Shown here one piece after another: positions 20,915 to 21,132 of a DNA stretch of 64,000 nucleotides. The stretch spans positions 106,394,001-106,458,000 of the forward strand of contig CM059431.1 in NCBI GenBank assembly GCA_030390025.1. The letters are read 5' to 3'. Origin of the DNA: Squalus acanthias. Its lineage: Eukaryota. Below the pieces are notes generated by a model that was not told the origin of the DNA, did no database searches, and saw nothing but the letters and a program-made list of their open reading frames with translations. Every line of letters starts with the position of its first letter. Positions within the stretch are counted from its first letter, which is position 1. Made by a program: the position numbers and the translations under genes.

Positions 20915-21132
20915 GTGAGAAGTCGCACAACACCAGGTTATAGTCCAACAGGTTTATTTGAAATCACAAGCTTTCGGAGCGCTGCTCCTTCGTCAGGTGA
21001 AGTCACTTCACCTGACGAAGGAGCAGCGCTCCGAAAGCTTGTGATTTCAAATAAAACTGTTGGACTATAACCTGGTGTTGTGCGACTTCTCACATTTGTC
21101 CACCCCAGTCCAACACCGGCATCTCCGCATCA
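20915..21132. mobile_element. Penelope family B fold-back pLTR insertion (palindrome plus 37-nt tail)
   Basis: 91-bp arms 20913-21003 and 21005-21095 with one mismatch; 13-bp TSD tacctgtaattat (20902-20914, 21133-21145); homologous to the termini of the PLE at 53765-55263. Confidence 0.9.
21008..21044 (+). ncRNA. Minimal hammerhead ribozyme motif (PLE family B); mirror copy on the minus strand at 20964-21000
   Basis: UCAC CUGACGA A GGAGC agc GCUCC GAAA GC UU GUGA. Confidence 0.72.

Follow-up and report, generated by a model that had tools for sequence, protein, structure and literature searches.

Hammerhead motifs and inverted insertions in the window

Within the window (the whole stretch of 64,000 nt that was analysed), positions 20913-21133 held one insertion, made of two truncated family B pLTR copies lying head to head inside a 13-nt target duplication and having the shape of a hairpin of about 90 bp with a 38-nt tail. 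It comprised, from left to right, the left target-site duplication (20902-20914, a 13-nt match sharing 1-2 nt with the element end), a minus-strand pLTR arm without tail (20913-21003), a single unpaired C at the head-to-head junction (21004), a plus-strand pLTR arm with tail (21005-21133), and the right target-site duplication (21133-21145). Both arms began at the initiator A, designated +1, which was nt 21003 in the minus-strand arm. The 38-nt tail occupied nt 21096-21133 approximately and, in full elements, ends at the ORF start codon.

Each arm carried a minimal family B hammerhead. The plus-strand motif (21008-21044), matched by a structural descriptor, consisted of helix I (21008-21011 and 21041-21044), the core (21012-21018), an extra A (21019), helix II (21020-21024 and 21028-21032) and GAAA (21033-21036), with the predicted cut at 21040/21041 (CUU). 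The minus-strand motif was located at nt 20964-21000, the cut being predicted from canonical numbering to fall between 20968 and 20967. The earlier note had given its observation the span of nt 20964-21044; this span contains two hammerheads, on opposite strands of one near-perfect hairpin of about 90 bp that the note did not describe. The computed pairing probability of the hammerhead helices was 0.0 in a transcript of the locus, versus 0.65-1.0 for the motif alone. Thus, the hairpin is predicted to block folding of either hammerhead, which would make the copies at 20913-21133 dead passengers, and the two motifs are expected to be unable to dimerise in cis. Identity as a non-LTR retrozyme was rejected for this locus, since at least two head-to-tail units with same-strand hammerheads are needed, whereas the units here are head to head.

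The descriptor, defined as CUGAnGA, an optional extra base, helix II of at least 4 bp, GAAA, U-H and helix I of at least 3 bp, matched six motifs in the window and none in each of 60 first-order Markov shuffles, confirming the recurrent architecture claimed previously. Besides the two described above, these were the motifs at nt 55174-55212 (plus strand) and 53849-53887 (minus strand, downstream of the end of a PLE ORF) in a third family B insertion, and two minimal hammerheads of family A at nt 22185-22221 and 11911-11947. The former of these, located 3' of a PLE ORF fragment, had an ACGU palindrome and a GUU triplet; the latter belonged to an arm that started at the first base of helix I, nt 11947, and adjoined an inverted tail piece. 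A looser scan of the window added a seventh, damaged motif at nt 50430-50466. Between 21008-21044 and 55174-55212, helix I changed from C-G to U-A exactly as had been claimed, and helix II did change its length, from 5 to 6 bp, with pairing kept and one G.U included. The family A motifs of the earlier note were likewise present; both, however, lay on the minus strand, and 11911-11947 ended with AGCU (giving a U.G pair) instead of AACU. Searches of Rfam returned no hammerhead family even at E<=1, giving weak hairpin-driven miRNA and plastid matches only, which were rejected; identification was therefore based on the descriptor and the published alignment.

Other inverted insertions were observed in the window. 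The second family B head-to-head insertion (50360-50557) had a different junction, a tailed right arm and a 12-nt duplication, and contained the damaged plus-strand motif mentioned above, whose helix II was affected. The third family B insertion (53758-55267) was composed of a long, tailed minus-strand arm, in which an RT/EN fragment was present (ORF 54437-55135), and a short, tail-less inverted arm. A family A head-to-head insertion (38772-38977, ends approximate) possessed a tailed left arm and two hammerheads truncated at the junction.

Carrier elements and variation of the motif

Judged by sequence, both carriers are very abundant endonuclease-bearing PLE families. Exact patterns, which give lower bounds, matched at least 62,845 family B and at least 36,997 family A motifs in the 3.7-Gb assembly, and reversed control patterns had no match genome-wide. 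A near-full family B copy (L110) contained, in order, a hammerhead, the tail, an ATG (at 220, directly after the tail), RT, EN, the 3' UTR, a second hammerhead and a tail; its long frame matched Pfam RVT_1 (E=2e-9) and had a frame shift inside the endonuclease. Placement of the motif in the PLE pLTR was seen in this copy and, in the window, at nt 22185 and 53849, below the ends of PLE ORFs. The 5'-truncated PLE ORF of family A (22250-23650, minus strand) encoded the end of an RT, a CX4CxxC linker and a GIY-YIG endonuclease, the match to the last having an E value of 7e-4, below the Pfam cut-off, and shared 31% identity over 326 aa with the family B protein. In both families, the domain after RT was a GIY-YIG containing two internal cysteines, and a CX2-5CxxC linker was present; these motifs were recognised by reading. 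This linker is a Neptune and Nematis trait (PMC8557442). The carriers fitted EN+ PLEs of the Neptune/Nematis type in the predicted domain and linker features.

Only one of 201 arms extended into the ORF, and the pLTR was present in contigs of 4 sequencing runs from four organisms. At G000:C1:2360230-2366400, the right half of which is L110, an insertion with two long arms of ~2.9 and 3.3 kb was recognised by motif spacing; its right arm passes two hammerheads, indicating that the template ran above +1. A GAAA-type simple repeat was located at window nt 23900-23950, immediately past the family A fragment at its 5' junction. ORF fragments at window nt 37140-37859, 4000-4530, 7779-8447 and 42412-43206 resemble LINE reverse-transcriptase ends; the three of them scanned had no match in Pfam.

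Core CUGANGA ... GAAA ... UH and helices I and II, by which the minimal type I is recognised, were present, and the extra base lying after position 9 and before 10.1 was A in 23 of 23 aligned types. The self-complementary hexamer AAGCUU or AACGUU, which the earlier note had taken for the reduced helix III, contains core A14 and N17, and 16 of the 100 listed family B motifs read AAGCUC (hand tally). Since position 17 is thus U or C, the conserved palindrome is not the hexamer; it is the 4-mer A15.1-N-N-U16.1, AGCU in family B and ACGU in family A. The search patterns demanded the palindrome letters, so the evidence for it is the exchange of the palindrome as a unit (GC/CG) between the families and not the copy counts. 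Selection against G at position 17 was considered and rejected, A and G totalling 109 copies with roughly equal shares, both background-like and uninformative.

Over 23 distinct types, hand-chosen from 42 plus the window copies, 98.4% of cells were paired, a value reached by none of 500 shuffles. Most two-sided changes represented the single contrast between family A and family B, and do not therefore count as many independent events. Within family B, two-sided change was observed at two pairs, C-G/U-A in helix I and C-G to U-A at the loop-closing pair of helix II. The helix I pair in the 100 listed family B motifs was C-G in 75, U-A in 17, U.G in 6 and C.A in none, with 2 broken by the junction (hand tally); genome-wide, the U.G form had 2,110 copies, mostly of one amplified subfamily, and C.A mismatches had 416, which were scattered. 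N7 was any of the four bases, loop II varied from 3 to 9 nt, other changes in helix II were mostly wobbles, and the outer pair of helix I was missing in some subfamilies. The letters of the catalytic core were invariant in the 23 sampled types except at position 4. The G10.1-C11.1 closing pair was present in family B, whereas family A had A-U or G.U.

One amplified family B subfamily had C for U at core position 4 (L070:2908-2945, L119, L124:449-486, L036 and L057), and in most of its copies the helix II loop-closing pair was changed on both sides as well. This C, as well as the closure of helix II without G-C in family A, may lower activity.

The identity proposed by the earlier note, minimal type I hammerheads of PLE pLTRs that are conserved in structure and retain a palindromic remnant of helix III, was supported. 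Its reading of the 2-nt loop III and the NUU triplet as shark variants was not, because C-G-U-U or G-C-U-U is given for turtle, Tetraodon, Nasonia, C. briggsae and others in PMC4209133 (Figure S3), and the supposed lineage-specific variant is the standard form. The motifs, as far as sequence can tell, are standard PLE minimal type I hammerheads belonging to an already-described class and not shark-specific variants.

Head-to-head junctions and RNA 5' ends across the genome

Of 80 head-to-head pairs, 79 had a single tailed arm and none had two; after dropping 30 pairs picked by likeness to 20913-21133, one-arm tails were found in 49 of 50. Target duplications measured 8-15 nt in 68 of the 80 pairs, the remaining pairs giving 7 nt or less, mostly from short flanks. 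Spacers between arms ranged from tens to thousands of bases (59,215 arms). The exact centre of 20913-21133 was shared by 289 copies, the tail being on one given side in 144, and occurred on many loop II subfamily backgrounds; the exact-centre hairpin is made anew at each insertion. A non-autonomous, MITE-like family of 221-nt hairpins derived from one master copy is very improbable and largely refuted. The top 40 genome matches do share both ends with ~98-99% identity, as such a family would, and 289 copies have the exact centre; the order of these 40, however, was set by their similarity to the query, and 289 copies are few compared with the 59,215 arms, whose spacers vary widely. A fixed structure and polarity were not found, as the centre occurred in many loop II subfamilies and either side could bear the tail.

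Lengths of the two arms were matched, 22 of 33 pairs lying within 25 nt versus 13.7 expected by permutation (p=1.5e-4), in a sample biased to short insertions. In 50 pairs, the longer arm was the tailed one 12 times and the tail-less one 15 times, with 23 pairs undecided. These lengths bear on fold-back or self-priming, in which a single newly made strand folds over and uses itself as template, yielding a palindrome, and which was put forward, as self-priming on an antisense template, in the discussion of PMC3846280 (Arkhipova 2013). Fold-back would yield the long near-perfect palindromes with centres of 0-24 nt that were observed (L062, L119, L123, L124 and L125), as well as the rare variants usually shared by the arms of one pair, but it predicts that the tailed arm is the longer, whereas the tail-less arm was longer in 15 of 27 decided pairs. 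The even distribution of the tail between sides is also against it, although the side might become random if the centre between the arms were inverted later; moreover, both outer ends resemble primed 3' ends inside one duplication, and in one pair (L111) the arms differ at 4 subfamily-diagnostic sites. Fold-back is thus considered unlikely. According to the available part of PMC11167929, a PLE protein extends both target strands in vitro from two adjacent RT starts bracketing the tail; together with the pair counts, this suggests one priming per strand followed by end-joining.

The arms of L111 (G000:C1:4094100-4094460), which belong to different subfamilies, were enclosed in one 13-nt duplication; weaker mixed-subfamily pairs were L112, L092, L094 and L105. 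Such arms are not obtainable from one RNA, and those of L111 reflect either two RNA templates or later gene conversion. The same long head-to-head junctions recurred at different target sites (L101/L103 and L109/L112), with the tail on opposite arms in L101/L103, and represent either a microhomology hotspot or occasional remobilisation. Short repeats, of the kind expected if the template slipped several times close to the RNA 5' end, were present at the junction centres of L035, L098 and L117. Two family B insertions of different subfamilies were found tens of bases apart or less in L045/L046 and L004.

Upstream of the arms, TATATATG was located 30-33 nt above +1 in 40 arms, corresponding to a TATA box with an initiator-like A ~31 nt below it; this A+1 lies 3 nt before helix I. 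The commonest arm start was +1, used by 8 of 91 arms, or 8 of the 61 reaching +1 (p=1.4e-5), the sample favouring short insertions; in the subset taken strictly in order of position, only 2 of 23 arms used it (p=0.054). In family A, besides the arm at nt 11947, two more arms started one base inside helix I. Reverse transcriptases add C opposite a cap. The C at nt 21004 is either the native -1 base or an added base, for which a cap origin may be suggested. In 10 of 100 listed exact-centre rows, a hand count within a junction-centre tally that covered C centres only, the native -1 base of the subfamily was T, indicating that the central C was added there. G preceded +1 in 6 of 9 arms, and in 5 of these cases the G can be derived from sequence of the junction or of the partner arm, which leaves L093 as the sole clean case, with one G between the target duplication and +1.

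No genomic footprint of cleavage was seen, arm starts at the predicted cut site showing no excess: these numbered 5 among 100 listed arms (hand tally) versus 5.9 expected, and 3 of 30 in a script check, in a listing that includes both arms of some insertions and one palindrome twice and whose ends are blurred a few bases by microhomology. Approximately 5% of 54,831 anchored arms ended within 8 nt of this site, an estimate obtained by applying an approximate pass rate of 0.27 to 786 matches. The few arm ends at the cut site suggest that templates were nearly always uncut or religated.

Religation is the basis of a circle model (Cervera & de la Peña 2014), in which a read-through RNA, cut at two consecutive hammerheads, releases a unit that is ligated into a circle, and internal priming on this circle gives tandem copies. 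Because ligation restores the motif, ends at the cut site should be lacking, as observed; an internal RT start would work without an RNA 3' end, 39 of 91 arms reached above +1 by over 26 nt, and L110 spans two hammerheads. However, plain read-through RNA accounts for the same data, and starts at +1 require linear RNA. The circle model, which is compatible with two-end priming, is accordingly possible but rather doubtful. The absence of any trace of cutting in the genome could also mean that the fold is maintained for protein binding or for translation, with cleavage in vivo rare or absent. The amplified subfamily with C at core position 4, the family A closing pair without G-C, and the low in vitro activity and lack of RNA ends at the site in the available published work on PLE hammerheads are in line with such a role; against it are the core letters, invariant in 23 types except at position 4, the palindrome swapped as a unit (GC/CG), and the anole motif, which does cleave with protein. 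We regard a purely structural role as improbable. Selection keeps the fold, implying that the hammerhead has a job in active elements, and we would rank conditional cutting, by which the RNA loses its cap end and leaves the template pool, as the likeliest, circle formation second and a non-cutting structural role last.

Proposed insertion route and comparison with known systems

The data establish the anatomy of family B, the pairing kept across amplified subfamilies and the copying of almost all insertions through an uncut hammerhead. The best explanation for the whole, which we consider moderately probable, combines 5'-terminal pLTR hammerheads, two-strand priming on uncut RNA and conditional cleavage. 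The family B order would be TATA box, A+1 and hammerhead at +4 to +40 (cut after +36), followed by a first putative RT start at ~+90, the tail, and a second RT start at the ATG, ~+130. The PLE protein would nick both target strands ~10-12 nt apart, and each strand would prime one cDNA, one per RT start site and usually on the same RNA, an intact template that is probably capped. Both cDNAs would extend to the RNA 5' end, reaching +1 at 20913-21133, and then be end-joined head to head. By itself, the hammerhead might be unable to close helix III and might cut only when dimerised or assisted by protein; the cut RNA might leave the template pool or be religated. A stronger version is put forward tentatively, with somewhat less than even chances: a dimeric enzyme with two fixed, non-interchangeable start sites would use one capped RNA (now and then two), and the cDNAs would run to the cap and off it, with a base derived from the cap left behind, and then be end-joined.

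If this route is true, the head-to-head form and one-sided tail, the formation of which was called undefined in PMC8557442, would be explained without antisense self-priming; the cap-proximal hammerhead would be a switch removing RNA from the template pool or recycling it into the pool, and ~100,000 copies would be a record of the PLE insertion mechanism. A literature search, with most subscription literature outside its range, found no shark case and no two-end priming model. Ribozymes of this type have been described before, and the copies at 20913-21133 are predicted to be inactive; the value lies in numbers, as tens of thousands of young insertions allow the insertion route and the role of the hammerhead to be tested by junction counts, and the junctions name an exact candidate transcript start and cut site for 5'-end mapping. 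We judge this junction-based mechanistic reading to be the part worth following.

Comparisons with published systems refer to the available parts of the sources. The metazoan PLE hammerheads of PMC4209133 have the consensus CUGANGAH-G..C-GAAAN-NUH, with G10.1-C11.1 in more than 80% (exceptions in Figure S3), an extra base after A9, palindromic 15.2-16.2 and weak, dimer-only cleavage. The motifs described here are similar in core, extra base, short helix I, palindromic 15.2/16.2 and location in the pLTR, as well as in occurring as many single copies and as opposite-strand pairs 100-700 bp apart. The lamprey motif has the same UCAC/GUGA helix I as family B, and the A-U or G.U closure of helix II in family A is also found in some fish and coelacanth motifs. 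Numbers differ, with ~100,000 motifs here versus ~4,000 in coelacanth and ~9,000 in Xenopus, the descriptors being different. Cartilaginous-fish terms were absent from the two supplement files of that paper that were searched.

Poseidon of Anolis carolinensis (Frangieh et al. 2024, PMC11167929) resembles the present elements in having a pLTR hammerhead and two RT starts bracketing the tail, both strands being cut and extended with uncut RNA as template; in vitro, its hammerhead requires protein and is dispensable for insertion. Its hammerhead overlaps the ORF start, whereas that described here lies ~90 nt upstream of the ATG, and the CX2-5CxxC linker present in both families here is lacking from Poseidon; the accessible text on Poseidon does not treat inverted insertions. 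Penelope elements of Adineta vaga (PMC3846280) likewise have a pLTR with a TATA box and a TCACT initiator, pLTR copies in inverted orientation of which one carries the tail, palindromic junctions and duplications of 8-10 bp; their palindromes were read as antisense self-priming, whereas our counts are more in line with sense RNA primed from the two ends of the target. The promoter of Drosophila Penelope is TATA-less and internal (PMC2377424), indicating that the TATA-initiator layout is not universal. Non-LTR retrozymes (bioRxiv 10.64898/2026.07.22.740005) are likewise short, non-coding PLE derivatives with type I hammerheads and include one chondrichthyan genome, but they are head-to-tail tandems with same-strand hammerheads, whereas the insertion at 20913-21133 is head to head and of a kind formed anew each time.
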